DNA from: Rhodospirillaceae bacterium
Lineage (GTDB): Bacteria > Pseudomonadota > Alphaproteobacteria > GCA-2731375
Assembly (NCBI GenBank): GCA_018701215.1
Contig: JABIWH010000012.1
Span: 3,164 to 67,163, forward strand
Length of the DNA stretch: 64,000 nucleotides
Direction of reading: 5' to 3'
The notes under the pieces were generated by a model. That model saw nothing but the letters and a program-made list of their open reading frames with translations, made no database searches and was not told the origin of the DNA. The stretch's first letter is position 1. The number at the start of each line of letters is the position of its first letter. Both the position numbers and the translations under genes were made by a program. Positions 6,960-23,038 of this stretch are shown here, one piece after another.

Positions 6960-7988
6960 ATGTCCAACACCAGCAATGACCGCTACCGCATCGTTGGCGC
7001 CCTTGGCTCCCCCTATTCCATGAAACTGCGGGCGATTATGCGCTATCGCCAGCTGCCTCACGATTGGGTCCTGCGTACGACGGCAAACCGGGCCGAGACA
7101 GCGAATGTAAAACCGAACCTGGTGCCCATGCTGCGCTATCCCGGCGAAAGTGATTATCGGGTGGATTCCACCCCCCTGGCCTATGATCTGGAGGCGCGCC
7201 ATCCCGGCCAGCGCTCGATCATTCCCGACGACCCCGGCCATGCCTTTCTCTCCCATCTGCTGGAGGATATGGCCGATGAATGGCTGACCAAGGCGATGTT
7301 CCATTACCGCTGGTACTATGACGCCGATATCTACTATGCCTCGCACTGGATCGCCGATGACGGTTATCCCGAAACACGCGGCGCCGAGCGCGATACCGCC
7401 GCCAAGATGTTCGCTGACCGGCAAATTGGCCGCATGCCCATCGTCGGCTGCACGCCAGAGAACAAGCCGGTAATCGAGGATACCTTCCACCGCGTCCTGG
7501 CCCTGCTGGAAAGCCGGGTCAGCGTCTATGATTTCCTCTTTGGCACACGGCCTAGCCTGGGCGACTTTGGCATCTTTGGCCAACTGAAACCATTATCAAC
7601 GGACCCAACCCCCATGGCGATCATGCGGGCGGAAGCCATGAAAACCGAAAGCTGGGTGCGGCAACTGGACGATGCCTCGGGCATCGATGGCGAATGGCTG
7701 GACCCGGGCGATGACCTGCCGGCGGCGACCATGGGTCTGCTGGCATTGGCCGGGGAATATTATATGCCGTTCCTCCTTGCCAACGCCGACGCCGTCGAAG
7801 CGGGCGAAGACACATTCTCGCTGAATTACGCCAAGGGCCCCTACAGCCAAGGCACCTTTCGTTATCAGCTGAAATGTCTGAGCGAGCTGCGCTACCGCCT
7901 CTCCACCTTAAGCGGCGAGCCGGCGGAGCGGACCCGCGCCGTTTTGCAGCAGACCGGCTGTCTGGATGCGCTCAATTCGCAACGCTAA
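6960..7988 (+). CDS. glutathione S-transferase family protein
   Basis: N-terminal thioredoxin-like GST domain (RIVGALGSPYSMKLRAIMRYRQLP) plus a C-terminal helical domain, 342 aa. Confidence 0.7.
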   Translation: MSNTSNDRYRIVGALGSPYSMKLRAIMRYRQLPHDWVLRTTANRAETANVKPNLVPMLRYPGESDYRVDSTPLAYDLEARHPGQRSIIPDDPGHAFLSHLLEDMADEWLTKAMFHYRWYYDADIYYASHWIADDGYPETRGAERDTAAKMFADRQIGRMPIVGCTPENKPVIEDTFHRVLALLESRVSVYDFLFGTRPSLGDFGIFGQLKPLSTDPTPMAIMRAEAMKTESWVRQLDDASGIDGEWLDPGDDLPAATMGLLALAGEYYMPFLLANADAVEAGEDTFSLNYAKGPYSQGTFRYQLKCLSELRYRLSTLSGEPAERTRAVLQQTGCLDALNSQR

Positions 7989-8833
7989 TCGCGCAATGCC
8001 CGCGCTTGGATGCGGGCGGAATACATCGAAAGCAACCGATGGTCCGCATCCCAGGCGGGCAACGCCGTATAATCGACGGCTTTGGCGAAAGCCGCGATGG
8101 CGTCCTGCAGGGCGCGGTCCAGCGCGGCCAATGTCTTTGGCACGATTTCCGCACTTTCACAGACCGTGGCCAAGGCCAGGACCAAGGCAATCAGCGCCTG
8201 CTCCAATGCTTTGTCGGCGCCCTTTAGTTGCGCCAGTAAGTAGCCGGCACCGGCGAGCATGACGAAGCGCGGCTCGCGCCGGCCGAACTGCCGCATCTGG
8301 TCAATGCCATAAACATTACCAGGCGCCACCTCCGCCGCCTCGAAGCGGGCAAAACCCTGGCTCATGGCGGCGAGAAAACCCGGCGCATCTCTATGGCTGA
8401 GATGAACGCCCGAAATCTGAGTGGGGATCAGGATGCATTGCCCGGTCTCATTTAACGTCACCAGCAAATGATCCAGATGCCGTGATTGCGCCACCCAGGA
8501 CTTGCAGCCATCCAAGGCGAACCCCGCGCCACTGGCCGTAAGCCGTGTGCCGGGATAGGCGGCGGGGTCGGTTTTGTCCTCGGTCGCGGCATAGGCGGCC
8601 CAGCCCTGGCTTGGCACGTCCCCAAAGACATACCGGATTGCCGCCTGATAGCCGGCGATGAAAACCCACGGCAAGCAATCCGCGCTCATGCCGCCCTGTA
8701 GTGCTTGAAGAACCGGCGGCAGTGTATCCAAGCCTTGGCCATGCCAGGCTTTGTACCAGGCAGCCTCGTCCGGTGCCGATATGATTGGCACCTCGCCATT
8801 CAGGAAACGTTCGATCAAGCCGGCGGCCGGCAT
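7985..8833 (-). CDS. hypothetical protein
   Basis: 282-aa ORF filling the gap between the GST gene and the monooxygenase. It is co-directional with the downstream operon. I recognise no motif. Confidence 0.45.
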   Translation of the reverse strand: MPAAGLIERFLNGEVPIISAPDEAAWYKAWHGQGLDTLPPVLQALQGGMSADCLPWVFIAGYQAAIRYVFGDVPSQGWAAYAATEDKTDPAAYPGTRLTASGAGFALDGCKSWVAQSRHLDHLLVTLNETGQCILIPTQISGVHLSHRDAPGFLAAMSQGFARFEAAEVAPGNVYGIDQMRQFGRREPRFVMLAGAGYLLAQLKGADKALEQALIALVLALATVCESAEIVPKTLAALDRALQDAIAAFAKAVDYTALPAWDADHRLLSMYSARIQARALRD

Positions 8834-8845
8834 GGCGTCCTCCTC

Positions 8846-10042
8846 TTAATCCGTAATCCGCTCGGCGGCGCGCAGGGAGGCAATCATCGAGGTGCGCAGC
8901 AGATAGTCGTGGGTCTTTTTCGGATCATCGGAAACCTCGGCCAGAAAATCGCGAAACGTCCGCTGTGCCGCGGGCGTATTGGCTTCGAGGTTCTGCTTGT
9001 TGCGGATAGTCTGGCTGTTGACATAGTCCAGAGCAATAGGCCGGCGCTGCTTCTCGTAAAGGTCCAGCAAACCGTCATCCCCTTCGCCATGCCAGACCTT
9101 GGCCATTTTTCCGGCCAGATTGAAGGCATCATGAATCCCGCCGTTCATGCCCATGCCCCCCAAAGGATTATTGATATGGGCGGCATCGCCGGCAATGAAG
9201 ACGCCGCCCTCGCGGTAGCGCTCCGCCACCCGCTGATGCACCCGGTACAGGGTGGTGTGGGTCCGCTCGTAGGTGTCCGCCATCGAATGGGCCCATTGCA
9301 TGCGGGCCTCGATCCGCTCGGGGTCAAAGATTTCAGCCTCGGTTTCTTCCGGCCTGGTTGGGAACATGGCCCGCCACAGGCCCGGCACCTTGAGCAGGAA
9401 GAACCACTGCTCCGGATCGGCAAAGTAATTCACCAGGGTCAGGTCTGGCATTGCCTCTTCGAACGGATAAGGTGTCGAGACCACCAGAAAGCGTTCGTCC
9501 CAGGTGAAACCCTCGAACGGAATATCCAAGGTTTGGCGCACGACGCTGTTCGCACCCTCGGCACCAATCAGCCAGCGGCCCGTGAAGACCTCCTCGCCAT
9601 CCGGCGTTTTGACCAATGCCGTTACGCCATTTTCGGTCTGACGCAGGCCCGTGATGGCATGGCCAAATCGGATGTCCGCGCCGCCCTGAGCCTCGATCCA
9701 ATCATGCAGCAGGAAGTTCAGCTTGAACTGTTCGCACTGCACCCGGAACGGATGCTCTGTATCATCGGCAAGAACGGAGAAGTCAAACTCCGCCAGGCAA
9801 CCATTGGCGCGGTCGCGGAATTGAAACTTCGGCGCCACCAGGCCTTGCTCGATCAGGCTTTGCGTGGCGCCATAGGGCGCCAGCATATCCAGGGTCGGCG
9901 GATGAAAAGTCGATGCGCGCAGATTTTCGGGCAAGGCGTCCTCGGCCTCGAATACGGTCACGGGAATGCCGGCCTGGGTCAGATAGGCCGCAGCGCTTAG
10001 CCCCACCGGGCCGGCGCCGGCAATCAATATACGATTGGTCAT
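8846..10042 (-). CDS. FAD-dependent monooxygenase (UbiH/PheA-type aromatic hydroxylase family)
   Basis: GxGxxG dinucleotide fold (RILIAGAGPVGLSAAAYL) and the DG/GD motifs (GAEGANSVVR; FIAGDAAHINNPLGGMGMNGGIHDAFNL). The start is set at MTNRIL..., 4 nt after the SDR stop. Confidence 0.85.
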   Translation of the reverse strand: MTNRILIAGAGPVGLSAAAYLTQAGIPVTVFEAEDALPENLRASTFHPPTLDMLAPYGATQSLIEQGLVAPKFQFRDRANGCLAEFDFSVLADDTEHPFRVQCEQFKLNFLLHDWIEAQGGADIRFGHAITGLRQTENGVTALVKTPDGEEVFTGRWLIGAEGANSVVRQTLDIPFEGFTWDERFLVVSTPYPFEEAMPDLTLVNYFADPEQWFFLLKVPGLWRAMFPTRPEETEAEIFDPERIEARMQWAHSMADTYERTHTTLYRVHQRVAERYREGGVFIAGDAAHINNPLGGMGMNGGIHDAFNLAGKMAKVWHGEGDDGLLDLYEKQRRPIALDYVNSQTIRNKQNLEANTPAAQRTFRDFLAEVSDDPKKTHDYLLRTSMIASLRAAERITD

Positions 10043-10046
10043 TTGA

Positions 10047-10814
10047 CTAGGGCGCCGTCCAGCCGCCATCGACCATGATGGTGGTGCCGGTGATCAGGGC
10101 CGCCGCGGGCGAGGCCAGAAAGACCACCGCGCCCAACACATCCTCGATCTTGCCCAGCCGGCCCAGAGGGATCTTGCCCTGCAAATCGGCCACCACCGCC
10201 GGGTCCTTCAAACGTTCCGCCAGCATAGGCGTCGCGATGGCCGTAGGGCCGACGGCGACGACGCGGATATTCTTCGGGGCAAGCTCGACAGCGGTGGATT
10301 TGGTCAACCCTTCGATGAAATGCTTGGTGCCGGAGTAGATCGAGGCGCCCTGCCGGCCCACCTTGCCAAAGGTGGACGACAGATGAATGATTACACCGCC
10401 GCCCTGGCGGTCCATGATCCGGGCGGCGGCCTGAGCCACCAGAAACGCGGCCCGGATATTCAGATTGACCATCAGGTCGAGAGTTTCGATATCGGCCTCG
10501 AGGAAACCCATGGGCACATTGGTGCCGGCGTTGTTGACCAGAATATCCAGACGTTCCAGCCCGGCCATGGCCTCGGTCAAAGCCGCCTGATCTCCGACGT
10601 CGCAGGCCACTGCCCGGCCCTTGCCGCCCTTGGCCTCTATTTCGGCCACCACCGCCTCGACCTCGGCCCCGGTCCGGGCCATGGCGATTACCTCGGCGCC
10701 GGCTTCTGCCAAGGCCAAGGCACAGCCACGGCCAATGCCCCGGCCCGCGCCGGTGACCAGGGCCACCTGGCCATCAACCCGCATGGACGGCAGGACTGTG
10801 TTTACTTCGCTCAT
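10047..10814 (-). CDS. SDR family NAD(P)-dependent oxidoreductase
   Basis: TGAGRGIGRG Rossmann motif and NNAG motif in a classical 255-aa SDR. Confidence 0.9.
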   Translation of the reverse strand: MSEVNTVLPSMRVDGQVALVTGAGRGIGRGCALALAEAGAEVIAMARTGAEVEAVVAEIEAKGGKGRAVACDVGDQAALTEAMAGLERLDILVNNAGTNVPMGFLEADIETLDLMVNLNIRAAFLVAQAAARIMDRQGGGVIIHLSSTFGKVGRQGASIYSGTKHFIEGLTKSTAVELAPKNIRVVAVGPTAIATPMLAERLKDPAVVADLQGKIPLGRLGKIEDVLGAVVFLASPAAALITGTTIMVDGGWTAP

Positions 10815-10840
10815 TTTTCTGCTTCCCTATACGATCAGGC

Positions 10841-12538
10841 TTAGACGATCTCTGAAACCACCACGTTCAACAACACCTGGCGGCGTTCCTCACGCACCAT
10901 TTTCACGGCCCGGGCCAAGGCATCCTGTAATTTATCGGGATCGGTGACCCGTTCGCCATAGCCGCCGCAGGCCGCGATGATCTGCTCATAATCCGGTGCC
11001 GGGTCCAGGCGCGAGAGCGGAATATCGTTGCCGCCCAGGGCCCTGCCGTCGGGATACATTGCCTTGGTGGCCCGGCGCACCGCGCCCCAACCATGATTGT
11101 TGACGACAATGTAGAGGATCGGCAAGTCATAGGCCCGGCCGCAGTAATGCGCCGCCATGGGGTTGCCAAAGAAATACGAGCCATCACCGATGGTGGCAAT
11201 GATCAGATCGTCGGGCGCCGCCAGCTTGGCGCCAAGTGCTGCGCCCAGACCCCAACCCAGGCCGCCCGCCGGGCTCGGCCCGAAATAGCGGCCAGGCTGG
11301 TTGATGCCCGCATGTTGCGGCACCACGCCCATTTCATTGACCAGAATGGCGTCATCGCCCAGATGTTCGCCCACGCACTGGGCCAGCCAGGCGGGATGGA
11401 TGGGATCAGCGGTGCGGGCGTTATCGCGGATGCCTTGCCATTTATCGCGCACGGCCTGGCGTGCCGTCGCCACGGTCTCGCGCCGGATGTCGATTTTACC
11501 TGTATCGCTCCCCGCCATGGCTTCCGCCAGCAGCGGCAGCGCCGCCTTCGCGTCCGCCGCGATCGACAAAGCGGATGGAAAGCCACGGATGGGATAGCGG
11601 CTGAACAACGGATCAGGCGCCAGGTGGATCACTTTGGCGTTTGGGTGCACGGGATCGGTCGCGGGGATCCAGGGTACATCGCAATCCAAGACCAGGACCG
11701 CATCCGCCTTCGCCAAATGTGGCGAGGCCTCGTAATCCAGATGCATGGGATGGTCATTGCCCAGGCAGAGATAGCGGGGCACATGGGTGATAACGGGAAT
11801 GGCGTAGCGTTCCACCAACTCGGCCAGATGCCCCGCGGCCTTGGTGGACTTGCCCACATCCGCCGTAATGATCAGCGGATTGTCCGCCGCCATCAGTATT
11901 TCGGCGGCCTGGGCGATTTGCTCCGGATCGGGGTGGGCGACGCCGGTGGCCGCGGCCCGGCGCGGCGCCAGGGACGGCGTCGCCGGCGCGGCCAGGACCT
12001 CGCGCGGAATGGACAGATACACGGGCCCCGGAATATCGGATTCACAAATGGTGATGGCCCGATCCAGGACGATATCGACCTCCGCCGGGGCGCGCAGCTC
12101 ATAGTCCCATTTAACCAGCTCGCGCAGCATGCCGGCCTGATCGAACATTTCCTGGGCCCAATGAATATGCCGGCTGCGCGTGCCCTCCGCCAAGGGCGCA
12201 TGTTCCGACCATGGCGTCCGGCCGGCCATCAACAATATCGGCACGTTGGTACGGTAAGCATTGGTCAGACCGCAAATGGCATTCGAGGTGCCCACGTTGA
12301 CATGCAGCATCACCGCCAGGGGCTTGCCCTTGATCATGGCATAGCCGTGCGCCATGGCGATGGCGACATTCTCGTGCGGCACAACAAGCGGTTGCGGCCC
12401 GTCACTGCGGTCTCCGGCTTGCGCTATGGCTTCGATAATCGGTGGGAAATCGGTGCCCGCATTGGCCAGAAAATATTCGATGCCCGCCGCCTGCAAGCGT
12501 GCCAGTACCGCATGGCCGACATTTGTTTGATCGCTCAT
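10841..12538 (-). CDS. thiamine-diphosphate-dependent enzyme (acetolactate synthase / benzoylformate decarboxylase-like)
   Basis: 565 aa with TPP_enzyme N, M and C domains, including the ThDP-binding GDGS...N region (ATIGDGSYFFGNPMAAHY...VVNNHGWG). Confidence 0.85.
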   Translation of the reverse strand: MSDQTNVGHAVLARLQAAGIEYFLANAGTDFPPIIEAIAQAGDRSDGPQPLVVPHENVAIAMAHGYAMIKGKPLAVMLHVNVGTSNAICGLTNAYRTNVPILLMAGRTPWSEHAPLAEGTRSRHIHWAQEMFDQAGMLRELVKWDYELRAPAEVDIVLDRAITICESDIPGPVYLSIPREVLAAPATPSLAPRRAAATGVAHPDPEQIAQAAEILMAADNPLIITADVGKSTKAAGHLAELVERYAIPVITHVPRYLCLGNDHPMHLDYEASPHLAKADAVLVLDCDVPWIPATDPVHPNAKVIHLAPDPLFSRYPIRGFPSALSIAADAKAALPLLAEAMAGSDTGKIDIRRETVATARQAVRDKWQGIRDNARTADPIHPAWLAQCVGEHLGDDAILVNEMGVVPQHAGINQPGRYFGPSPAGGLGWGLGAALGAKLAAPDDLIIATIGDGSYFFGNPMAAHYCGRAYDLPILYIVVNNHGWGAVRRATKAMYPDGRALGGNDIPLSRLDPAPDYEQIIAACGGYGERVTDPDKLQDALARAVKMVREERRQVLLNVVVSEIV

Positions 12539-12555
12539 TGTCCGCTTCCCCTACT

Positions 12556-13971
12556 TTATTCGTTTGCAATTATCGCCGTGGCGGCGCTTGCATCATCCAG
12601 CACCGCGTCCAAGTCTACATCGCCCGCGCCGGGCACCTTGATCACCGTAAAGGTGAAATCATCCGCCGCCAGGGGAATGGTCGCATCCAGGCCCATCTTG
12701 GCACCGACGCCTCCGTCCGTGGTGGTCGGGTCCAACTTGGAGGCTTGGGTATTGTTGACCACCAGCAAATCCTGATCCGCCTGAAAGCGCGTTGCGATGG
12801 CCCATTCCACCGCCTCGCCATCATGAATATTGACGTCCTTGTCAACCACGACCACCTGCTTGATATCGTAGTGGGCGGCGAAGGCACCCATCATGATATT
12901 CTTGGCCTGGCCTTCCTGCTTCTTGTCGATCTTGACCACCAGATGATAGCGGCAGATGCCGCCGCGTGAGAGATGCACGTCCAGCACGGCTGGGTCATGG
13001 CGCTGCAGGGATTCCAATATGGTCGCCTCGCGCGGCAGGCCGCCCAGCAGCAGATGCTCCATGCCGCCGCCGACGATGGTGTGGAAAATCGCGCCTTCCC
13101 GGTGCGTGATTGTATCAACCTGGATCACATGGCGGTTGGCGCGGCGGCCGTAATATTGCGGGAACTCGCCGAACGGCCCCTCGGGTTCGGCCACGCCGGG
13201 CAGCACCCGGCCTTCCAGAACGATTTCCGCATGCGCCGGCACCCGAACGTTATTGGTTTTGCATTTGACCATTTCCACCGGTGCGCCGTGCAGGGCGCCA
13301 ACGATTTCCATTTCGTCAAAATCCATGGGCACGATGGCCTGGCTGGCCAATAGAGACGCGGGATCGACGCCGATCACGATGGCGACTTCCAGGGCCTGGC
13401 CGGCTTCCTCGGCCATTTGGCTGTAGGTCCAGGTATGGCGCGGCAACAACAGGACGCCGATGCGGTCCTTGCCGCTGATCTGGCAGCGGTGGATGGAGAC
13501 GTTCTGGATACCGTTCTTAGGATTGCGGGAAATCATCAGGCCGGCCGCGATATATGGCCCACTGTCCAATTCGTTGTGCGTGGGCACGGGCAATTGGCCG
13601 TTAATATCGACGTCTGTGTGCACCACCGCCTGTACCGGAGCGTCCTCGACCTCGACCCAAGGCAGCGGATTACGCACCGCATCCTGATAGCGCGCGATCA
13701 GGTCATCTTCGGATACGCCAAGACAATCACCGATCCATTTGCGCGAGGCCAACAGATTGGCGGCCACGGGTATCTCGTGGCCGTCGGGTTTGGGAAAGAG
13801 CACCGCCTTGTCCAGTTCCAGCTGATCGGAGACCGCGGCCAGTTCATGCACAAGGCCCACACCCGGTTTGGCCACCGCCAGACGGTCGGTGGCGGCAAGA
13901 TGGGTCAGCCATTCGCGCAGATTCTTGCTGCAATGATTGGCTGATGGTGCCGGGGCTTTTTCGGCGGTCAT
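12556..13971 (-). CDS. UbiD-family (prFMN-dependent) decarboxylase
   Basis: 471 aa with UbiD family signatures throughout (the central E...HxxG..E region and the C-terminal VVVVDKDVNIHD). No ubiX-like partner is present in the window. Confidence 0.85.
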   Translation of the reverse strand: MTAEKAPAPSANHCSKNLREWLTHLAATDRLAVAKPGVGLVHELAAVSDQLELDKAVLFPKPDGHEIPVAANLLASRKWIGDCLGVSEDDLIARYQDAVRNPLPWVEVEDAPVQAVVHTDVDINGQLPVPTHNELDSGPYIAAGLMISRNPKNGIQNVSIHRCQISGKDRIGVLLLPRHTWTYSQMAEEAGQALEVAIVIGVDPASLLASQAIVPMDFDEMEIVGALHGAPVEMVKCKTNNVRVPAHAEIVLEGRVLPGVAEPEGPFGEFPQYYGRRANRHVIQVDTITHREGAIFHTIVGGGMEHLLLGGLPREATILESLQRHDPAVLDVHLSRGGICRYHLVVKIDKKQEGQAKNIMMGAFAAHYDIKQVVVVDKDVNIHDGEAVEWAIATRFQADQDLLVVNNTQASKLDPTTTDGGVGAKMGLDATIPLAADDFTFTVIKVPGAGDVDLDAVLDDASAATAIIANE

Positions 13972-13977
13972 AAGAGG

Positions 13978-14403
13978 CTATGCCTCAACTACATTGAAGG
14001 CGGGATAGGCGGTCTCGTCGTTGACGGCATCCCAGGCCAGTTCGACCCGCTGGCCGATGGCAACTTTATCAGGCGCCATGTTCAGGACGTTGCCAAGAAT
14101 GCGCACGCCTTCGTCCAGCTCCACCGTCACCACGGATAGCGGCAGGCGGCCCTCCATGCTGGGACCCGGCACCCGTACGATGGTGCAGGCATAGATCGTC
14201 CCCGTGCCCGCGACCTTGCGCCATTCCAGATTACGCTTGCCGGTATAAAGACTGATGGGCCGGGGATAATGCTGGAACTGCTTCGTATCCGGGCAATACT
14301 GCATCATCAATTGGCCGTCCTTGGTGCCCTGCCAGAAGGCATTGGTATCGACGAAACGGTTGGGCTTCGGCGTCGGGCGGGGTTTGATTTGTTCTTCTGA
14401 CAT
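13978..14403 (-). CDS. Zn-ribbon/OB-fold protein (DUF35), thiolase partner subunit
   Basis: 141 aa with a Cys/His zinc ribbon (YCPDTKQFQHYPRP...C) and an OB-fold. It sits immediately downstream of an SCP-x-type thiolase, as in BbsAB/Ltp2-ChsH2. Confidence 0.8.
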   Translation of the reverse strand: MSEEQIKPRPTPKPNRFVDTNAFWQGTKDGQLMMQYCPDTKQFQHYPRPISLYTGKRNLEWRKVAGTGTIYACTIVRVPGPSMEGRLPLSVVTVELDEGVRILGNVLNMAPDKVAIGQRVELAWDAVNDETAYPAFNVVEA

Positions 14404-14404
14404 C

Positions 14405-15556
14405 CTAAGCCTCCAAAATCATCGCGGTGGATGTGCCCCAGTTTCGGGCGTAGGGAATGACGCCGATCCCGGTGACCAGGGCGTTTTGCGTATTGGCGAC
14501 CTGGCGTTGGCCCGCCTCGCCGAACATTTGGCGCACTGCTTCTGCCAGGTTCAGACCGCCGCTGGCCAAACCTGGCTGTCCCGCCGAAAGCTGCCCGCCA
14601 CCCGTATTCAGCGGCAGATCGCCCTTGCACGATAGATCCGTCGCCATGACATAGTCGCTGCCCTTGCCCTTTTCGCAGAAGCCGAAGTCTTCCATCTGCA
14701 TCATCACCGCGATGGTGAAATCATCGTAGGGTTGGAAGCTGCCGATATCGCCCGGCTTCAGACCGGATTTCTCGAACACCTTGGGCGCCAGCACGCTAAA
14801 GCCGGTCTCGGTGACATCCGCCACCGGGTCGGCACCCTTGAAGTTGGTCACTTCGGCATAGGCCGTGGGGCGGACCATTTTCTCGATACCCAGTTCCCTG
14901 GCCTTGGCCTCGGAGGTGACCAGAAAGGCATTGCCGCCGTCGCAGAACATCACGCAATCCAGCAGCCGTAACGGATCAGCGATCATGCGGGAGTTCATAT
15001 AGTCGTCCACCGTGATCGGCTTTTTCAATTTTTCAAAGGCGTTGTCGTTCATCAGACCGCCTTGCCGCTGGGCAATGGCGATCTTGGCCAAGGCCTCGTA
15101 GTTCAGGCCGTATTGATGTTCATAGCGGCTCATCAACAGACCAAAGGCCGAGGGCGGGCCCAGAACACCCACCGGATCCTGAAACTCACCGCGCCAGGCG
15201 CCGTAATTGGCGCCCCAGTTGGTGCTGGGGGCATCCGCCGACAGCACCACCGCAACCTCGCATTGCCCTTCGCGGATCGCAGCCATGGCGCGGGCCACAC
15301 CCCCCGTGGCGGAACAACCACCCATGCCGCCGTAATTCAGCCAGGTCGGCGACAGGCCCAGGGCCTCGGTCATGTAGAAGGCAAAGAACGGATTGGCGCA
15401 TTCACTCAGCGGTACGGTGACCGACAGGCCGTCGACCCGCGCTATGTCCACGCCGGTTGATGCCAGCAATGCGGCAAACGCTTCACCCGCGAAATCATAG
15501 GCGCTGCGCCCGCTGCGAAATTCCACCGCCGTTTCCGAATAGCCGGCGATGACCAT
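14405..15556 (-). CDS. thiolase-like protein (SCP-x/Ltp type)
   Basis: Thiolase N- and C-terminal domains. The track ORF is trimmed from 16372 to the ATG at 15556 (MVIAGYSETAV...), which is where similarity to the paralog at 48806 begins. Confidence 0.8.
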   Translation of the reverse strand: MVIAGYSETAVEFRSGRSAYDFAGEAFAALLASTGVDIARVDGLSVTVPLSECANPFFAFYMTEALGLSPTWLNYGGMGGCSATGGVARAMAAIREGQCEVAVVLSADAPSTNWGANYGAWRGEFQDPVGVLGPPSAFGLLMSRYEHQYGLNYEALAKIAIAQRQGGLMNDNAFEKLKKPITVDDYMNSRMIADPLRLLDCVMFCDGGNAFLVTSEAKARELGIEKMVRPTAYAEVTNFKGADPVADVTETGFSVLAPKVFEKSGLKPGDIGSFQPYDDFTIAVMMQMEDFGFCEKGKGSDYVMATDLSCKGDLPLNTGGGQLSAGQPGLASGGLNLAEAVRQMFGEAGQRQVANTQNALVTGIGVIPYARNWGTSTAMILEA

Positions 15557-15676
15557 ATTCTCGTCTGACAAGTTCCGCTCCTCCGTAAATTTTCTTCTCT
15601 TACTGTTGCCCTGATTGTAGCCGCGCTTTGCGTTCCATGAATAGCCCGTGATACCGTAATACCTACAGGACCCCAC

Positions 15677-18451
15677 ATGAGGATGCGTCGCATGACCGAT
15701 ATCAAACCAGAAACCAAGCCAGGAACAAAAAAGGTCCCGACCTATTGTTTCCAGTGCGTTTCGGGACCGGATCTGATCAAGGTCGAGGTCGAGGATGGCG
15801 TCGCGGTGCGGATCGAACCGAACCTGAATATTTGCGGCCAGCATCCAGGCCAGGGCACGCCGTGCGTCAAGGCCTATGGCCTGGTGCAGAAAACCTATAA
15901 TCCGAACCGGGTGCAACAGCCCATGAAGCGGACCAACCCCAAGAAGGGCCGCGACGAAGACCCCGGCTTCGTACCGATCAGTTGGGACGAGGCGTTGGAT
16001 ACGGTAGCCGCTAAGATGAAGGAAATCCGTGCCAAGGGGCTGAAGGACAATTCCGGCTATCCGCGCCTGGCGGTCAGTTTCGGCGGCGGCGGCACACCAA
16101 CCCGGTTCATGGGCAGTTTCCCCGCCGTACTCGCCGCCTGGGGGCCGGCGGATCTGGGTTTTGGCGCCGGCCAGGGGGTGAAATGCTACCACTCGGAACA
16201 TCTGTATGGGGAATTGTGGCAGCGGGCCTTTACCCTGGAGGTCGACAGCCCGTACTGCGAATACGTCATCAACTGCGGCAAGAATGTCGATGCTTCCGGT
16301 GGCGCCACGGGCGTTAGGCGTGGTGCGGAGGCACGCCGGCGTGGTTTGAAGCGCGTCATGGTGGAGCCACATCTGTCCGTGACAGGCGCCATGTCTGCCG
16401 AATGGGTGCCCATCAAGGCCAAGACCGATGCCGCGTTTCTATTTGCGGTCATTCACCGCATCATCAAGGAACGTGACTGGGCCGAGGTTTGCGACGTCCG
16501 TTTTCTGAAAGAAGATACAACTTCGCCCTATCTGGTGGGGCCGAACGGCTATTACATGCGCGAACCCAGCACGGAAAAGCCATTGATCTGGGATCTGGCC
16601 GACGGCCAGGCCAAGCCGTTCGATGCCAATATCCAAGACCCGGCCCTGGACGGCAGCTTCAAGGTCACGGGATTGGAAATAGGCGCCGACGATGAAGTCT
16701 GGCGCCATGATGGTGTCGAAGTGAAGCCGGCCTTCCAGGTACTGCTGGATCATATGGAGGAATACACCCCCGATTGGGCCGAGGCCGAATGCGATGTGCC
16801 GGCGGAAACCATCCGCCGCGTGGGTGACGAGTTCGTGGCCCACGCCCGCGTCGGCGAATTCATCGAGATCGAGGGCGAGATGCTGCCCCTGCGTCCCGTA
16901 GGCGTGGCCCTGGGCAAAAGCGTCAACAACGGGCCGGGCGGCTATCACGCGGTCTGGGCCCGGACTTTGTTGAGCGTCCTGGTTGGTGCCATCGAAGTTC
17001 CCGGTTCGAACCTGGGCACGAAAGTGCGTCTGAACCGGCCCGCCAACAACAAGCATCTAAGTGCGGTATCCAGCCGTGACGGCATCATGGACTTCCCCTT
17101 CAACGATACCTCGAAAGAAGGCTGGTCCTCCCAACCGAAAATCCGCAACGGCTATAACTCCCTGGTGCCGCTGTCCTCGTCCTCGCCCTGGGCGCCGGCC
17201 TTGGGCCCGGCCCATCTACCCTGGCTGTTCCAAAAGAAGGCGCCGGATAATTGGCCGCGTCCGACGCTGCCCGATATGTGGATCTGCTACCGCACCAACC
17301 CCGCCATTTCGTCCTGGAACGCGCCTGAAGTCGCCGAACGTATCGCGGAATTTCCCTTCACGCTGTCGTTTGCCTACACCCGGGACGAGACCAATCATAT
17401 GGCGGATATTGTGCTGCCGGAGGCAACGGATCTGGAAAGCCTGCAGCTCAGCCGTATCGGCGGTACCGGCTCGGGCGAACAGTTCTGGAAGCATCAAGGC
17501 TGGATGATCCGCCAGCCGGCGGTGGAACCCGTGGTCGACGCCATGGACATGACCGATATCGCCACCGAGATCTGCCAGCGCGTCGGCATCCTGGGCGAAT
17601 ACAACATGGCCATCAACAAGGGTGCGGCGGGCATGAAGCTGGCCAACAACCAGTTCGACTACAGCCTGGAGCCGGACGTGGCCTATGGGGTGGAGGAGAT
17701 CTGGGATCGCGTGGCGAAAGCCGCCAGCCACGATCTGAGCAACGGCGAGGAAGTCCACGACCTGGCCTGGTTCAAGGAAAACGGCTACATGCTGCGCGAT
17801 TTCGCCCAGCGCGAATGGTACCTCTACCCTTATATGAAGGAGCGTGGCATTCGTTTCGAGCTGCCGTATCAAGAGCGCATCAAACGCCATGGGGTGCAAC
17901 TGGCAAACCGCCTGCACGAGGTTGGCGTGGAATGGTGGGACGGCCAGTTGGAGGATTATGATCCCCTGCCGAAATACGAATCCTTCCCCGATATCTGGAC
18001 CAACTATGTCCGCGAAATGGGTAAGGAGCCCGACGACTATCCCTTCTGGGCCCTGACCGCGCGCAGCATGCAATACGCCTGGGGCGCCAACGTGGGCATC
18101 CCGCTGATCTATGAAGTGGCGGAGAATGTCGCCGGCCATTCAGGCATCATCATGAATATGCAATCGGCGCAGAAAATGGGCATCAACCAGGGCGACCCGG
18201 TGGTGATCGAATCCGCTACCGGCATCACCCATGGCAACGCCGTGCTGCGCCACGGCATCCGCCCGGACACGGTGTTGATGATTGGCCAGTTCGATCATTG
18301 GGCAACGCCCTTCGCCAAGGATCTGAACCTGCCCAGCCTGAATTCGGTGACGGATATCGCGTTGTCCCTGACCGATGGCACGGGCAGTGGGTCGGACATA
18401 GTGCGGGTGAAGATCAGCAAGGATCTTAGATTGCGGAGAACCGGCTCGTGA
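15677..18451 (+). CDS. molybdopterin-dependent oxidoreductase, catalytic subunit (DMSO reductase family), cytoplasmic
   Basis: 924 aa with molybdopterin oxidoreductase domains. It has an N-terminal Cys cluster with atypical spacing, Cx2Cx25Cx10C, and no twin-arginine signal. An alternative start at 15692 has a GAGG RBS. Confidence 0.85.
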   Translation: MRMRRMTDIKPETKPGTKKVPTYCFQCVSGPDLIKVEVEDGVAVRIEPNLNICGQHPGQGTPCVKAYGLVQKTYNPNRVQQPMKRTNPKKGRDEDPGFVPISWDEALDTVAAKMKEIRAKGLKDNSGYPRLAVSFGGGGTPTRFMGSFPAVLAAWGPADLGFGAGQGVKCYHSEHLYGELWQRAFTLEVDSPYCEYVINCGKNVDASGGATGVRRGAEARRRGLKRVMVEPHLSVTGAMSAEWVPIKAKTDAAFLFAVIHRIIKERDWAEVCDVRFLKEDTTSPYLVGPNGYYMREPSTEKPLIWDLADGQAKPFDANIQDPALDGSFKVTGLEIGADDEVWRHDGVEVKPAFQVLLDHMEEYTPDWAEAECDVPAETIRRVGDEFVAHARVGEFIEIEGEMLPLRPVGVALGKSVNNGPGGYHAVWARTLLSVLVGAIEVPGSNLGTKVRLNRPANNKHLSAVSSRDGIMDFPFNDTSKEGWSSQPKIRNGYNSLVPLSSSSPWAPALGPAHLPWLFQKKAPDNWPRPTLPDMWICYRTNPAISSWNAPEVAERIAEFPFTLSFAYTRDETNHMADIVLPEATDLESLQLSRIGGTGSGEQFWKHQGWMIRQPAVEPVVDAMDMTDIATEICQRVGILGEYNMAINKGAAGMKLANNQFDYSLEPDVAYGVEEIWDRVAKAASHDLSNGEEVHDLAWFKENGYMLRDFAQREWYLYPYMKERGIRFELPYQERIKRHGVQLANRLHEVGVEWWDGQLEDYDPLPKYESFPDIWTNYVREMGKEPDDYPFWALTARSMQYAWGANVGIPLIYEVAENVAGHSGIIMNMQSAQKMGINQGDPVVIESATGITHGNAVLRHGIRPDTVLMIGQFDHWATPFAKDLNLPSLNSVTDIALSLTDGTGSGSDIVRVKISKDLRLRRTGS

Positions 18452-20061
18452 ACGATCTATCCAGTAAGCGTTTCGGTATGGTGATCGACCTGAACAGCTG
18501 TGTCGGCTGTCAGACCTGCACTATTGCCTGCAAGCATGCCAACGACACTCCGCCCGGCGTACAATGGCGCCGGGTGATCGATGTGGAATTGGGCACCTTC
18601 CCCAACGTGGAACGCCTGTTCATGGTCACCGGCTGTCAGCATTGCGCCGAGCCGTCCTGCGTGCCGGTCTGCCCCACGGGTGCGACCAAGCAACGGGCCG
18701 ACGGCCTGGTCACCATGGACTACGACCTGTGCATCGGCTGCGGCTATTGCGCCGTCGCCTGTCCCTATCAGGCCCGCACCATCGCACACGAGCAAAACTG
18801 GTACTACGGCCAGCCGACGTTGCAGGAAGCCAAGGTGGCCCATGACGACCGCATCGGCGTCGCCATGAAATGCACCTTTTGTGTGGAGCGCGTGGATAGC
18901 GGCCTGGCAAACGGCCTGACGCCCGGCGTGGACCCTGACGCGACGCCCGCCTGCGCCAGTTCATGTATCGCGACGGCGATCCATTTTGGCGATTTCAACG
19001 ATCCCGACAGCAACGTCAGCCAACTGAGCAACGAAGACAACAGCGTTCAGATGCATGCGGAGCTGGGCAATGATCCCGGCATCAAATACCTCTACGGCCT
19101 GCCTAATTCCATGCCGGGGCGGGAACGCACGGCGGACGACGTGGACGAGCTGGCCTTGCAGGACCCCGCCAATCCGTTGGTGGGCAAGGTACAGAAATTT
19201 TGGGACATGCGCGCGGCGATGAATTTTATCCTGGGCGGCATGAGCACGGGCCTGATCATCTCGGCCTGGCTGGCCTATCTGATGGGCGGCATATCGGAAA
19301 GCGCCCTGGTCGGCGTCAATGTGGTGGCCGGCGTGGGCATGGCCGCGGGTTTGTTCTTCGTGTTTTTGGAGATCGCCCGCAAGCTGCGCTTCCTCAATGT
19401 GTTGCTGCGCCCGCAGACGTCCTGGATGACGCGGGAGACCTATGTGGTGGCGCTGTTCTATCCCACCCTGCTGCTGGATCTGCTCTGGCCCAGCGGTGTC
19501 CTGCATCTGTTGCTGGTCATCGAAGCGGCCGCATTCCTCTATTGCCAGGCCCGCATTCTGCCGGCAGGCAAGGGCATCCCCGCCTGGCGCGCGCCGTTGA
19601 TGCCCTGGATGCTGATCGCCACGGGTTTGCTGGAGGGCACGGGCCTGCTAGCTATTTCCGCCACCCTGCATCCAGCGATGCATTCCGTTGCCCCCCTGGC
19701 GGCGGGCATGGGCGGCGCCCTGGCCGTGATCAATGCCATCCTGTGGCGCAACTACATTGCCAACGCGGCCAGCAACGGCATCGGCCCCCTGCCCCGCAAG
19801 GCCCTGGGCGCCATCAACCTACCCCTGCGCCTGATTGGCCACGCCCTGCCCTTGCTGGGCTTCGCCGCCTTCCTCGGCCTATGGCCCACGCAACCCCTGG
19901 TCGCCACGTTGGCGGGCCTGGGCGCCGTGGTCGGCGGCATCATGTGGAAAATCACGGTGATCACCAAAGCCAGCCATCAGCAAGGTTTCAATCTATCAAA
20001 AGTACCGCAGCGCGGTTCCGGCACACGCGCCGCGCCGGCCAGGATGGGCACGACGGCATAG
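18448..20061 (+). CDS. 4Fe-4S ferredoxin-type electron-transfer subunit fused to NrfD/DmsC-like integral-membrane anchor
   Basis: The N-terminal ~250 aa carry four CxxCxxCxxxCP clusters (DmsB/PsrB-like). The C-terminal ~280 aa form about eight hydrophobic helices. The GTG start overlaps the alpha-subunit stop (GTGA). Confidence 0.8.
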   Translation: MNDLSSKRFGMVIDLNSCVGCQTCTIACKHANDTPPGVQWRRVIDVELGTFPNVERLFMVTGCQHCAEPSCVPVCPTGATKQRADGLVTMDYDLCIGCGYCAVACPYQARTIAHEQNWYYGQPTLQEAKVAHDDRIGVAMKCTFCVERVDSGLANGLTPGVDPDATPACASSCIATAIHFGDFNDPDSNVSQLSNEDNSVQMHAELGNDPGIKYLYGLPNSMPGRERTADDVDELALQDPANPLVGKVQKFWDMRAAMNFILGGMSTGLIISAWLAYLMGGISESALVGVNVVAGVGMAAGLFFVFLEIARKLRFLNVLLRPQTSWMTRETYVVALFYPTLLLDLLWPSGVLHLLLVIEAAAFLYCQARILPAGKGIPAWRAPLMPWMLIATGLLEGTGLLAISATLHPAMHSVAPLAAGMGGALAVINAILWRNYIANAASNGIGPLPRKALGAINLPLRLIGHALPLLGFAAFLGLWPTQPLVATLAGLGAVVGGIMWKITVITKASHQQGFNLSKVPQRGSGTRAAPARMGTTA

Positions 20062-20089
20062 GTTCGGGCATGGCGACAGTCGGGGTCTG

Positions 20090-20626
20090 ATGGTAGATCT
20101 CGATATCCCGCAAAATTCGGCGTCATCTGACTACAGGGGTGAGGTTCACAAATTGAATGATTATTGGATTGATATTGCAAGAATTCTGATACCGGGCGCA
20201 CTGATCGCGACTTTATCAGCGATTATCACAGTAAAACTCGCAATTCGTCGGTTTCACGAAGAAAAGTGGTGGGAAAAAAAGGAAGCCGCTTATACGAGTC
20301 TCTTTGAGGTAATGCACCGACTTAAGAATTACGCCGTACAACACTATGAGCAAGAACTCGATCCGGGGAGCTTCTCCAAAGAATATATGAAAGAACTTGA
20401 AGTCGAATGGCAAAAGGCAAGTCGTGAATATGCGAAGCTGCGCGATCTGGCTTCATTTCACCTCAGCGACGGCGCCCTCGCAGTTCTTGAAAAATTTGAC
20501 AATCAGAAGCAAAAAGCTCGAAATAAATTCGACCTATTTCTTTGGATCGAGGGAGACCTTGAGGCTGTGACTGAATGCCTCGAACAACTTAAGTTAGCCG
20601 CAAAAAAGGACCTCAAAGTGCGTTGA
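20090..20626 (+). CDS. hypothetical small membrane-anchored protein (low-GC island)
   Basis: 178 aa with one N-terminal TM helix (IARILIPGALIATLSAIITVKLAI), followed by a charged helical domain. GC is about 45% against ~65% background. A TTG start at 20153 with a GTGAGG RBS is an alternative. Confidence 0.55.
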   Translation: MVDLDIPQNSASSDYRGEVHKLNDYWIDIARILIPGALIATLSAIITVKLAIRRFHEEKWWEKKEAAYTSLFEVMHRLKNYAVQHYEQELDPGSFSKEYMKELEVEWQKASREYAKLRDLASFHLSDGALAVLEKFDNQKQKARNKFDLFLWIEGDLEAVTECLEQLKLAAKKDLKVR

Positions 20627-20801
20627 ATTCATTCTTTTGGGCTGCTGCTACATTTGTTGCCGCAATCCAGAATTCGCACTTCATTTGACGTCGCATTCCA
20701 GATTTCGGGCGATTGATTGCATTGCCCTATCCAGTTCGCGTATAGGGTGGCCTAGGTGCGCTTACATCCGGTGCCAATGCATCAAAGGACAGGTGGGTAC
20801 G

Positions 20802-21797
20802 ATGAAATTCAAGCAACGCACACTTATGCAAATCGCTGATATGATCTGCGGGAATCTTGAGGGAGAAAAAAATCTCTTTCGATATCGAAGCAGTAGTTAT
20901 CTGACGGAATTTTTCCAAGACTGCGATACCGATTATGAGCATGATGGTTCGACGCGCAAGTATTGGGTCGCAGACACACTTTTGAAAATTCTATCTGAAC
21001 CAAACCTCAACGCAAATACGCCTACAGAAACGTTCTCGCGTGTCATTCAGACTCTCATGGATCAAGGAGATGCCGAAAACGAGAATAAGGAGCGAGAGGG
21101 CGCATTGGTCCTGCTAAACACGGCACTCGCCCGCGAGGGCTTTGAAGCCTTTTACGCGCCCGATAAGCAATGCTACTTGCGCCACATTGCGACAAACACG
21201 ATTGTGAGGACCTCACCCAACCCCCATCGTCCTTTTTCAGAGGCGGAAATCATCCAGCGGGAGCTACTAATCGCTTATCTCAACGACGCCTCAGAAGATG
21301 AGTTGATTGAAGAGGTTTTATTGCCCCTCTTTCGCCACCTTGGTTTTCATCGCGTGACGTCTGCCGGGCACAAAGATAAGGCCCTGGAGTACGGCAAAGA
21401 TGTTTGGATGAGGTTTACTTTGCCTACGCAGCACGTTCTTTATTTTGGCATTCAAGCTAAGAAGGGGAAACTGGACGCATCTGGCACAAGCAAAGCGACA
21501 AACGTGAACGTTGCCGAAATCCATAATCAGGTAACGATGATGCTAGGGCATGAGATTTTCGACCCGGAGATCGGCAAGCGCGTCCTAGTTGATCATGCAT
21601 TCATTGTGGCGGGCGGAGAGATCACTAAAGCAGCGCGTAATTGGCTTGGAAATAAGTTGGATGCCACGAAGCGAAGCCAGATCATGTTCATGGACCGAAA
21701 CGACATTCTGGATTTATTTGTTGTCACAAATGTGCCCCTGCCCGATAGAGCCCAGCCGGATACAGCGCCAATCGACGCAGACACAATACCATTTTAA
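20802..21797 (+). CDS. Mrr-like restriction-endonuclease-fold (PD-(D/E)xK) domain protein with uncharacterised N-terminal domain
   Basis: The C-terminal ~150 aa match the Mrr catalytic-domain pattern (LFRHLGFHRVT...GKDVWM...YFGIQAKKGK...IVAGGEITKAARNW). The start at 20802 has an AGGTGGG RBS, and the track's N-terminal extension is rejected. The region is low-GC. Confidence 0.6.
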   Translation: MKFKQRTLMQIADMICGNLEGEKNLFRYRSSSYLTEFFQDCDTDYEHDGSTRKYWVADTLLKILSEPNLNANTPTETFSRVIQTLMDQGDAENENKEREGALVLLNTALAREGFEAFYAPDKQCYLRHIATNTIVRTSPNPHRPFSEAEIIQRELLIAYLNDASEDELIEEVLLPLFRHLGFHRVTSAGHKDKALEYGKDVWMRFTLPTQHVLYFGIQAKKGKLDASGTSKATNVNVAEIHNQVTMMLGHEIFDPEIGKRVLVDHAFIVAGGEITKAARNWLGNKLDATKRSQIMFMDRNDILDLFVVTNVPLPDRAQPDTAPIDADTIPF

Positions 21798-22099
21798 CAA
21801 TTGCAACAGGTCAATAGAAGAAAAGGAAGAAATTAGATCCTGTCTTGAATTTTGAGTTTTTGGGGCAAATTCCGGACAAATTTACGCCGCGCGGCATGGC
21901 AATATCGAGATAAAACACCAACTGCGAACAGGATGGTTCGGGGAACATGTCGCGGACCACATTATTCGGCAAAATTTAGCAATAATTTACCTCCCTCGGC
22001 CATTATATCGCCGTCACCGGGTCGGCTTGCGCTAATTGTTGATGGCCCTCCCGGCGCCAGTTATCCGCGTACGTTGCGCGGCGACGGAGGAAAGTGTGA

Positions 22100-23038
22100 A
22101 TGACGGACAAGTCTGAATCGGCTGGAACAAGCAGTATCGAGGCGGCAAAGGACGCGGTCGAACAAATTGGCCTGCCCAGCCTGAATATTCTGGTGGTGGA
22201 GGATTACCCGCTCAACCAGGAAGTCATCTCGGCCATGCTGGGCCATCTGGGGCACCGGATCGATATCGCTGAAGATGGTCTGGAGGCCGTCTCGGCGGTG
22301 CTGCGGTTCCGCTATGACATGATCCTGATGGACATCCATATGCCGAAGATGGACGGCAATACCGCCGCCCGCCGCATCCGCTCGTTACCCCGGCCCGAAG
22401 GCGATATTCCCATTATTGCCCTGACCGCCGATGCCTCAATGGAGCAACAGAAACAATGCCTTGCTTCGGGCATGAACGATTATTTGACCAAGCCGATCAT
22501 CCTGCCGGAACTGCTGCAAGCGATGGCCCGGTGCCTGGCGCAGGGGAAAACCCCTGATAGCGGCCGCGGCACACAGCCGGCTGGCGCGAATACGAAAACT
22601 GATTTCGCGCCGGGGTCCGAGGTCGGCACAATCTCCACCCCGGCCTCCGATCCAAAGATGGACCCCGACGTCGTGGTGAAATTCGCCGCCATGGTGGGCT
22701 GGGAGACGGTCACGCAACTGTTGGAAACCTTGGAAAAAGACTTTCCCGAACACCGCAAAATTATTACCCAGGCCGCCGAAATGGGTGAAATCGAAGTGCT
22801 GCGGCGGCAAATCCAGGCCCTAAACGGTGTTCTCAGCCAGTTCGGCGCAACAAAAGTGCAGGAAACCGCGAACGTCGTCGAAACCCTATGCAAGGCGGAC
22901 TTCGGCGCTACAGCGATTGACCTGATACCGCAGTTCCTGAATTTATGCAGCGCTTCCATTGCTGACCTACGCCAGGTCGTCAACGCGGAGGCGCCGGACC
23001 ACGGCCACGGCGATACGGCCGCGCCTCTCTCGATGTAG
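22100..23038 (+). CDS. response regulator receiver protein with C-terminal Hpt-like domain
   Basis: CheY-like REC domain (VVEDYP, ILMDIHMP, ALTA, LTKP), then a helical domain matching the Hpt pattern except that the phospho-His position is Gln (IQALNGVLSQFGA). Confidence 0.75.
   Translation: MTDKSESAGTSSIEAAKDAVEQIGLPSLNILVVEDYPLNQEVISAMLGHLGHRIDIAEDGLEAVSAVLRFRYDMILMDIHMPKMDGNTAARRIRSLPRPEGDIPIIALTADASMEQQKQCLASGMNDYLTKPIILPELLQAMARCLAQGKTPDSGRGTQPAGANTKTDFAPGSEVGTISTPASDPKMDPDVVVKFAAMVGWETVTQLLETLEKDFPEHRKIITQAAEMGEIEVLRRQIQALNGVLSQFGATKVQETANVVETLCKADFGATAIDLIPQFLNLCSASIADLRQVVNAEAPDHGHGDTAAPLSM

Follow-up and report, generated by a model that had tools for sequence, protein, structure and literature searches.

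A candidate member of the PadBCD molybdoenzyme family with a fused iron-sulfur/anchor subunit in a Rhodospirillaceae bacterium

Phenylacetyl-coenzyme A (CoA):acceptor oxidoreductase, PadBCD, of Thauera aromatica and Aromatoleum evansii is, to our knowledge, one of the few known enzymes that use water, and not O2, to oxidise a C-H bond adjacent to a thioester, and we know of studies on it only in denitrifying Rhodocyclales. It takes four electrons from phenylacetyl-CoA, which is converted to phenylglyoxylate, and passes them to a quinone or an artificial acceptor. Rhee and Fuchs reportedly found in 1999 that it consists of three subunits of 93, 27 and 26 kDa. Its molybdenum (Mo) centre is said, in the same work, to oxidise the alpha-CH2 group of the CoA thioester with oxygen taken from water, and to deliver the electrons to quinone. 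Here, we describe a relative of this enzyme encoded by two adjacent genes at positions 15,677 to 20,061 of a 64,000-nucleotide stretch of DNA from a Rhodospirillaceae bacterium (contig JABIWH010000012.1, positions 3,164 to 67,163), hereafter the window. The first gene encodes a predicted catalytic subunit, alpha, of the Mo-bis(pyranopterin guanine dinucleotide) (Mo-bisPGD) type, and the second encodes one protein in which an iron-sulfur (FeS) ferredoxin is joined to a membrane anchor. Our reading, to which we give a probability of about 0.72, is that they form a two-polypeptide, membrane-bound, cytoplasm-facing and quinone-reducing Mo-bisPGD/FeS enzyme with PadBCD-like chemistry on a CoA thioester. 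Its chemistry, its use of quinone and its substrate are inferred from the likeness to PadBCD; the likely substrate is an acetyl-CoA with an aryl or other substituent, not necessarily phenylacetyl-CoA.

Other described enzymes resemble the module in part. PsrABC of Thermus thermophilus (PDB 2VPW-2VPZ) has the same three-module layout, an anchor that matches that of the window (template-modelling (TM) score of 0.74 on PsrC) and a related alpha fold. It differs in having a canonical all-Cys N-terminal FeS site, FS0, and three separate subunits, and its alpha identity is ~18%. PsrA is exported by the twin-arginine translocation (Tat) pathway and faces the periplasm. SoeABC of Allochromatium vinosum and Ruegeria pomeroyi, a Tat-less, cytoplasm-facing Mo-bisPGD enzyme with an NrfD/PsrC-type anchor, is a precedent for the topology proposed here, but it acts on an inorganic substrate and has separate subunits, and its likeness to the window is one of description, not of sequence. 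We do not regard the module as a SoeABC enzyme, because of its much closer relation to PadB and because of its gene context. Ethylbenzene dehydrogenase and steroid C25 dehydrogenase (type II) also hydroxylate C-H bonds without O2 and with oxygen from water, and their alpha fold is related (2ivf_A). However, they belong to another subfamily: they are periplasmic and soluble, with an Asp ligand to Mo and a haem b gamma subunit, and they have no anchor.

The two-gene module and its relation to PadBCD

The alpha gene (15677-18451, forward strand) is an open reading frame (ORF) of 924 aa with Pfam matches to Molybdopterin and Molydop_binding. It is followed on the same strand by an ORF of 537 aa (18448-20061), whose GTG start overlaps the TGA stop of alpha in the four bases GTGA (18448-18451), which would couple the two genes. 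Both frames and their overlap had been given in a preliminary description of this DNA, and the coordinates and the overlap hold when read in the sequence. Since each of the two proteins has hundreds of full-length homologues with E = 0, neither is a chance ORF. In a plasmid collection searched by tblastn with alpha, the only match was a distant one (Sporomusa, 28% identity).

The second protein had been described as a four-cluster ferredoxin fused to an NrfD-type anchor of about eight helices, and its domains agree with this. Residues 1-216 (18448-19095) make up a PadC-like ferredoxin domain with 16 Cys (18499-18966) in four CxxCxxCxxxC-type groups. Pfam places Fer4_11 and other Fer4 families in this N-terminal part; its NCBIfam matches (DsrO, NrfC, ArrB, TtrB and DmsB) all lie below cut-off. 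After a linker with four Lys or Arg (K/R), delimited by the AlphaFold2 model and the charge count (residues 217-253, 19096-19206), comes a PadD-like anchor of the PsrC/NrfD/DmsC type with the presumed quinone site (residues 254-507, 19207-19968), where Pfam NrfD matches at threshold. AlphaFold2 predicts eight long transmembrane helices across the anchor, with a predicted local distance difference test (pLDDT) value mostly >90. In Foldseek, the best solved match of the anchor was PsrC (2vpw_C, E = 3e-6, target-normalised TM score 0.74), a menaquinone-binding protein with menaquinone bound in the structure, and the second was ActC of alternative complex III. The remainder of the gene encodes a basic C-terminal tail, with four K/R on the side of the FeS domain, and the stop codon (19969-20061).

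Close homologues of alpha are labelled "phenylacetyl-CoA:acceptor oxidoreductase" in JGI and "molybdopterin-dependent oxidoreductase" in NCBI, and both names are automatic. The nearest separate cluster representative (P0255) is 57% identical to alpha. Its contigs carry FdhD, an alpha of 917 aa, a PaaX regulator and, as two separate genes, a ferredoxin of 215 aa and a membrane protein of 301 aa. When species genomes were scanned with P0255, it matched Thauera (97%), several Aromatoleum and Aromatoleum evansii KB740 (82%), among others. The order of genes at the KB740 locus (L034 in our numbering) is PaaX, FdhD, PadB (919 aa), PadC (215 aa) and PadD (302 aa); downstream lie PadE, PadG, PadH and PadI, all above the NCBIfam equivalog cut-offs, and then phenylacetate-CoA ligase PaaK. 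This gene context fixes the PadB of KB740 as authentic, and the gene set is that of the canonical anaerobic pad cluster in the literature (PMC4453571). The window alpha is 56% identical to this PadB over 905 aa, the FeS domain is 56% identical to PadC over 210 aa, and the anchor is 39% identical to PadD over 297 aa.

A neighbour-joining (NJ) tree built from Kimura distances (61 sequences, 843 columns, 100 bootstraps) recovered the window's clade, the PadB clade and their union each in 100/100 bootstraps. The nearest other representatives (39-49% identity) and the distant ones (~33%) fell outside the union. In a second NJ bootstrap, to which the intermediate metagenome groups were added, the window's clade and the whole PadB side again received 100/100 each. 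These trees place the window alpha in a paralogous sister clade of PadB, and argue against its being an orthologue of PadBCD. In a broad sense, the window enzyme belongs to the PadBCD family: alpha is closest to PadB, the second protein is homologous to PadC and PadD, an export signal is absent, and the FS0 and Mo-ligand motifs agree. PadBCD, too, is Tat-less and combines a four-cluster ferredoxin with a PsrC-type anchor. It departs from PadBCD in the strict sense in that its subunits are not all separate, its gene context is not that of the pad pathway, and it lies outside the canonical clade. The preliminary description, which had likened the module to PadBCD, was therefore right as to the homology of the modules, the sister position and the topology, but the module is not the PadBCD orthologue, because it falls in a paralogous clade and lacks padE-I, PaaK and PaaX.

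The most visible difference from PadBCD is the fusion: where PadC (215 aa) and PadD (302 aa) are separate proteins, the window has one protein of 537 aa. All 120 best matches of the fused subunit are 524-566 aa long and come from Alpha- and Betaproteobacteria. Within the window's clade the two domains were fused in 43 of the 43 loci that could be scored, in genomes and metagenomes, and never split, whereas every scorable locus of the canonical PadB clade has separate PadC and PadD genes. A second, well-supported fused group lies on the PadB side (L145, L146, L150, L155, L156, L158, L161, L163 and L167-L169; fusion scorable in 10 loci), and the second bootstrap joined it with the window's clade in 0/100 replicates. 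The fusion may be ancestral and followed by later fission, or it may have arisen twice. Two loci of this second group (L161 and L163) adjoin padE-I-like genes and PaaK, so the fusion is an architectural variant that is compatible with the pad pathway, and one that is common, not rare. In sum, PadBCD has a large, uncharacterised sister clade with a fused electron-transfer/anchor subunit. Our literature searches (on PadBCD, on PadB/C/D and on phenylglyoxylyl-CoA) found no description of this fused clade.

An 84%-identical relative (L172, 6201-13373) has two alpha genes in tandem (915 and 924 aa), whose products share 83% identity, and one fused-subunit ORF after them. In this organism a single electron-transfer/anchor subunit may serve both catalytic subunits.

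One alternative is that the module is a true phenylacetyl-CoA:acceptor oxidoreductase in the role of PadBCD, in which PadC and PadD are merely fused. The identity to PadB, the active-site and FS0 motifs held in common and the JGI label all speak for it, and the fused loci with padE-I-like genes and PaaK show that the fusion fits a pad pathway. Loci of the window's own clade also have a PaaK-like ligase directly downstream of the module (6 of the 55 surveyed below) or a PaaX-like gene (L119 and L130). We nevertheless consider this role unlikely, since the window alpha belongs to a sister clade of its own (100/100), in which padE-I occurs at none of the 58 loci, and since the window is without PaaK, PaaX and the FlK-type thioesterase. 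In addition, the JGI name is an automatic orthology-term label, and thiolase/DUF35, UbiD and thiamine pyrophosphate (TPP) enzyme neighbours are foreign to the known anaerobic phenylacetate route.

Export signals, membrane orientation and metal sites

Alpha had been described as lacking a Tat signal, and the region upstream of it is in accord with that description. An in-frame stop (15638-15640) precedes the first ATG by 12 codons, Cys first appears at residue 24, and a hydrophobic h-region is missing (maximum 19-residue Kyte-Doolittle hydropathy, KD19, of 0.64 over the first 60 residues). Thus, alpha has no Tat signal and there is no room for a hidden one further upstream. The beginning "MRMRRM" is probably not translated: close homologues begin at the Met equivalent to M6, whose ATG (15692) is preceded by AGGA, so that the true protein would have 919 aa. 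Among 168 related loci, the open frame before the CxxC motif was free of a Tat-like motif in 167, and in the sole exception (L099) the match lies only in the frame upstream of the probable start Met. The median length of this frame is 26 codons in the window's clade. The N-terminus of the fused subunit (VNDLSSKRFGMVIDLNSC...) is likewise without a signal peptide.

The nearest outgroups (P0262/L011 and P0259) are 39-43% identical to alpha. One of them, P0262 (39%), has a clear Tat motif, RRRFIKAGTALGAAAA, and a His at the position of Asp32 of alpha; another near outgroup has a degenerate Tat-like N-terminus and a Cys at that position. Export status would therefore have switched near the base of the lineage that comprises PadB and the window's clade.

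The orientation of the anchor was assessed by counting K/R on each side of the membrane, with the helix boundaries of the AlphaFold2 model, in the window protein and in 40 homologues. On the side of the FeS domain (linker, loops 2-3, 4-5 and 6-7, and C-terminal tail) there are 14 K/R in the window protein and a mean of 14.6 in the homologues. On the opposite side (four loops) there are 0 in the window protein and a mean of 0.3 in the homologues. By the positive-inside rule, this bias of 14 to 0 puts the FeS domain, and alpha with it, in the cytoplasm, in agreement with the missing export signals. The cytoplasm-facing arrangement of the preliminary description is thereby supported, and an FeS domain turned towards the periplasm would run opposite to the charge bias. 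An enzyme that faces the cytoplasm would feed the quinone pool and would not be a terminal reductase.

These data bear directly on whether the module could be a periplasmic, Tat-exported respiratory reductase of the Psr, Phs, Ttr, Arr or Dms type. The best NCBIfam and PDB sequence matches outside the family (PhsA, ArrA, DmsA and PsrA) are to such enzymes, the anchor has the PsrC fold, and the near outgroup P0262 has a Tat motif. However, all NCBIfam scores of alpha are far below cut-off (PhsA, 151 against 694 bits; ArrA, 108 against 1600; DmsA/YnfE, 111 against 778). Alpha has neither a Tat signal nor room for one, the FeS domain, which is covalently bound to the anchor, lacks a separate signal peptide, and the charge bias places it in the cytoplasm. 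We regard a periplasmic reductase as hardly credible. The closest solved fold to alpha is ArrA (6cz7, 17% identity), found with an AlphaFold2 model (pLDDT 74.5) that was used for the fold search only; the family formed by PadB and the window's clade has no solved structure.

The metal sites of alpha were compared in an alignment of 169 sequences from the window's clade, the PadB clade and the nearest outgroups. At its N-terminus, the window alpha has four Cys, C24, C27, C53 and C63, with the spacing Cx2Cx25Cx9C. C24, C27 and C63 are invariant (169/169). Asp32 (D32) is present in 166 sequences, with His in two and Cys in one. In more distant relatives, the residue aligned with it is the third Cys of the canonical CxxCx(3-4)C motif, so that these have a Cys where PadB and the window alphas have Asp. 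In contrast, C53 is a Cys in only 11 of the 169 sequences, and within the 120 best homologues it is confined to the closest 20, the rest having an extra Cys elsewhere or none. The family FS0 motif is thus best given as C-x2-C-x4-D-x30-C (15746-15865 in the window), common to the window alpha and authentic PadB. The N-terminal Cys cluster had been noted earlier as atypical against Cx2Cx3C, and so it is; its reading as Cx2Cx25Cx10C was mistaken, because the last spacer has nine residues, C53 is clade-specific, and the motif that matters is shared with PadB. C53 as a cluster ligand of the whole family is ruled out by its rarity, and it could still act as a local alternative FS0 ligand in the window's subclade.

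The conserved motif implies that FS0 is either a [4Fe-4S] cluster with Cys3-Asp ligation or a [3Fe-4S] cluster, and the sequence fits both. The replacement of the third FS0 Cys by Asp extends over the entire PadB family, including the authentic enzyme. NarG-type enzymes have a His in FS0, but there it replaces the motif's first Cys, and we know of no description of a Cys3-Asp FS0 in Mo-bisPGD enzymes. If the site is as predicted, its occurrence throughout the family would represent an unusual cluster ligation among these enzymes.

The probable protein ligand of Mo is Cys170 (16184-16186), in the motif GVKCYHSEHLYGE. It is invariant (169/169) and aligns with a conserved Cys of distant Psr/Arr-type relatives, although the alignment of alpha to PsrA around the PsrA ligand Cys is of low confidence. 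The surrounding motif, GVKC(Y/V)HSEHLYGE, is invariant or near-invariant across the 169 alphas of both clades. Genes for SelB (7 loci) and SelA (6 loci) lie near alpha in several metagenome loci of the window's clade (L122-L125, L129, L131 and L136), and selenocysteine was considered for this reason. It was rejected: the alphas of those loci are full length, contain no in-frame TGA and have a Cys at the ligand position.

Gene context and the proposed reaction

Upstream of alpha, across an intergenic region of 120 bp (15557-15676), a divergent operon on the reverse strand (10047-15556; Pfam, NCBIfam) is the probable pathway partner of the module. It comprises, from the module outwards, an SCP-x-type thiolase-like gene (14405-15556), a DUF35/ChsH2-OB gene (13978-14403), a UbiD decarboxylase (12556-13971), a TPP enzyme (10841-12538; NCBIfam PRK08327, 665 bits against a cut-off of 456) and an SDR gene (10047-10814). 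Where pad loci have padEFGHI, PaaK, PaaX and FdhD, the window has the thiolase/DUF35, UbiD and TPP enzyme genes instead. The divergent set also lies beside alpha in three marine contigs (L001-L003, 97% identity). In L172 (84%) four of these genes are found again (thiolase-like, DUF35, UbiD and TPP), and DUF35 and UbiD are here separated by a CoA ligase; this locus stops inside the TPP gene, which is why no SDR gene is seen in it. UbiD genes flank the module in L006 (72% identity), and one adjoins a 49%-identical outgroup in L009. The rest of the window holds acyl-CoA dehydrogenases, thiolases, one CoA ligase and an enoyl-CoA hydratase, which bears out the earlier remark that the neighbours are rich in CoA-ester enzymes. 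NCBIfam gave no specific name to the neighbouring monooxygenase, acyl-CoA dehydrogenase, thiolase or ligase, all of which scored below cut-off.

To describe the context of the clade as a whole, ORFs within 8 kb of the module were clustered in 55 non-redundant loci and the cluster representatives were named by Pfam; the counts rest on our own ORF clustering, from which shadow ORFs were discarded. The commonest neighbour was a FlK-type hotdog acyl-CoA thioesterase of ~137 aa, immediately upstream of the module on the same strand, in 34 of the 55 loci. An AMP-binding CoA ligase lay upstream in 16 loci. Less frequent were a xanthine-dehydrogenase-type Mo subunit (10 loci), a TPP enzyme (8), SelB (7), and SelA, the PaaK-like ligase and a TctC receptor (6 each). 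Among the 51 non-redundant clade loci in the tree, tblastn found the thioesterase immediately upstream in 32. Its family is also represented in 51 of 79 canonical pad loci and in most loci of the intermediate groups. It is thus a conserved companion of the whole family, common to PadBCD and the wider clade of the window. In the pad pathway, phenylglyoxylate arises by hydrolysis of phenylglyoxylyl-CoA, the oxidation product of phenylacetyl-CoA (PMC9765128), and a thioesterase is among the listed pathway enzymes (PMC13416013). A thioesterase companion fits this route through the hydrolysis of phenylglyoxylyl-CoA.

The typical operon of the clade consists of a ligase, a thioesterase, alpha and the fused subunit, a context that speaks for CoA thioesters as substrates of the clade and for CoA as a means of temporary activation. 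The clade operons thus point to a CoA-dependent oxidation of acids. In the reaction we propose, a carboxylic acid would first be activated to its CoA thioester. The Mo centre, with Cys170 as its ligand, would then oxidise the activated alpha-CH2 group with an oxygen atom from water, to yield a 2-hydroxy- and then a 2-oxo-acyl-CoA. Electrons would pass from FS0 (C24, C27, D32 and C63) to the four [4Fe-4S] clusters of the ferredoxin domain, and end on a quinone in the eight-helix anchor that is covalently fused to it.

The contexts of the clade are heterogeneous. Two genomes, complete or nearly so, carry the module as an orphan pair of genes away from any CoA enzymes: in L004 it lies among transposase genes, and in L005 near FGE-sulfatase and Methyltransf_33 genes. 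In a 76%-identical member (L173, 11927-16565), the module adjoins two HGD-D genes and two BcrAD/BadFG genes, of the kind that encode benzoyl-CoA reductase or 2-hydroxyacyl-CoA dehydratase. Their presence suggests a context of anaerobic aromatic or 2-hydroxyacyl-CoA metabolism in that organism. An FdhD-type sulfurtransferase lies directly upstream of PadB in most canonical loci (L007, L008 and L013-L091) and never beside an alpha of the window's clade; the difference hints at a distinct maturation of the Mo cofactor, or at an FdhD encoded elsewhere.

Several points weigh against our reading of the module as a PadBCD-like enzyme for CoA thioesters. The FlK-type thioesterase was not found in the 64-kb window, and the nearest CoA ligase is 12 kb from the module. 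A tblastn search with A. evansii proteins found no padE-I, PaaK, PaaX or FdhD in the window region, and no padE-I, PaaK or PaaX in L001-L006; the majority of canonical loci carry padE-I, PaaK and PaaX. Across the clade, orphan modules, xanthine-dehydrogenase-type hydroxylases, Tct transporters and genes resembling benzoyl-CoA reductase or 2-hydroxyacyl-CoA dehydratase make the contexts so diverse that its members are unlikely to share a single substrate. The trees were built by NJ from Kimura distances and not by maximum likelihood, with unnamed representatives as outgroups. AlphaFold2 modelled the FeS domain poorly (pLDDT <50), and the positive-inside rule is a statistical indicator, not a measurement. 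Finally, our literature searches found no characterised enzyme of the window's clade.

Another alternative is a cytoplasm-facing hydroxylase or dehydrogenase of the same fold with a non-thioester substrate: a free aromatic or heteroaromatic acid destined for UbiD, or sulfite, as in SoeABC. UbiD adjoins the module in the window and in L006, and in L009 it adjoins a relative of 49% identity. Among the neighbours, xanthine-dehydrogenase-type hydroxylases and Tct carboxylate transporters are found repeatedly, and some orphan modules have no CoA enzymes around them. SoeABC itself is said, by Dahl and colleagues in 2013, to be a Tat-less Mo enzyme with an NrfD-type anchor. Yet PadBCD, by far the closest of the characterised relatives, has a CoA thioester as its substrate, an acyl-CoA thioesterase and CoA ligases are the genes most often found beside the module in the clade, and no sulfur-metabolism genes surround the module in the window. 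A non-thioester substrate therefore seems to us improbable, somewhat more so than a PadBCD role.

Within the preferred reading, a PadBCD-like oxidation of CoA thioesters, the window's own subclade may differ from the rest in the fate of the product. Its 2-hydroxy- or 2-oxo-acyl-CoA would probably pass to the divergent TPP enzyme, UbiD and thiolase/DUF35, and not to a thioesterase and phenylglyoxylate oxidoreductase. The TPP enzyme might cleave or decarboxylate it, and UbiD and thiolase/DUF35 might process the products, a route that is plausible but unproven. We tentatively extend this to a wider proposal, which is possible but on balance doubtful. The members of the window's clade would be O2-independent, water-dependent alpha-oxidases of acids other than phenylacetate, with CoA as a transient handle and the quinone pool as electron acceptor. 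In the window's subclade the enzyme would open a route that shortens the side chain by one carbon, in which the 2-hydroxy- or 2-oxo-acyl-CoA is cleaved by the TPP enzyme and then processed by UbiD and thiolase/DUF35.

That relatives of PadBCD are Tat-less and membrane-bound was to be expected, and databases already carry a PadB-like label for them. What makes the clade worth following up is its size, the consistent fusion, the structure of its operons and the predicted Cys3-Asp FS0 site. It is common in marine and other metagenomes and in genomes of Alpha- and Betaproteobacteria (marine, soil). Should its substrates be identified, the breakdown of aromatic or branched acids would gain an alpha-oxidation step that is quinone-linked and O2-independent, and this knowledge would correct the automatic label "phenylacetyl-CoA:acceptor oxidoreductase". 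The gene pair also offers a simpler, two-polypeptide system for structural work on the family.

Segments particular to the window

Directly after the fused subunit lies a low-GC (guanine plus cytosine) stretch (20090-23038), with a GC content of 0.48 at 20001-22000 and third-codon-position GC (GC3) values of 0.45 and 0.54. It holds ORFs of 178 and 386 aa with no match in Pfam, NCBIfam or PADLOC, and then a response-regulator/Hpt protein. The stretch looks like a strain-specific insertion, because it is absent from the 97%-identical contigs L001-L003.

On the far side of the divergent operon, between an acyl-CoA dehydrogenase and the SDR gene (6960-10069), are a GST-N-like gene, a gene for an unknown protein of 282 aa and an aromatic-type FAD_binding_3 monooxygenase gene. 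These three genes are also absent at that position in L001-L003. The monooxygenase is closest to MhpA-like phenol hydroxylases, with a score below cut-off.

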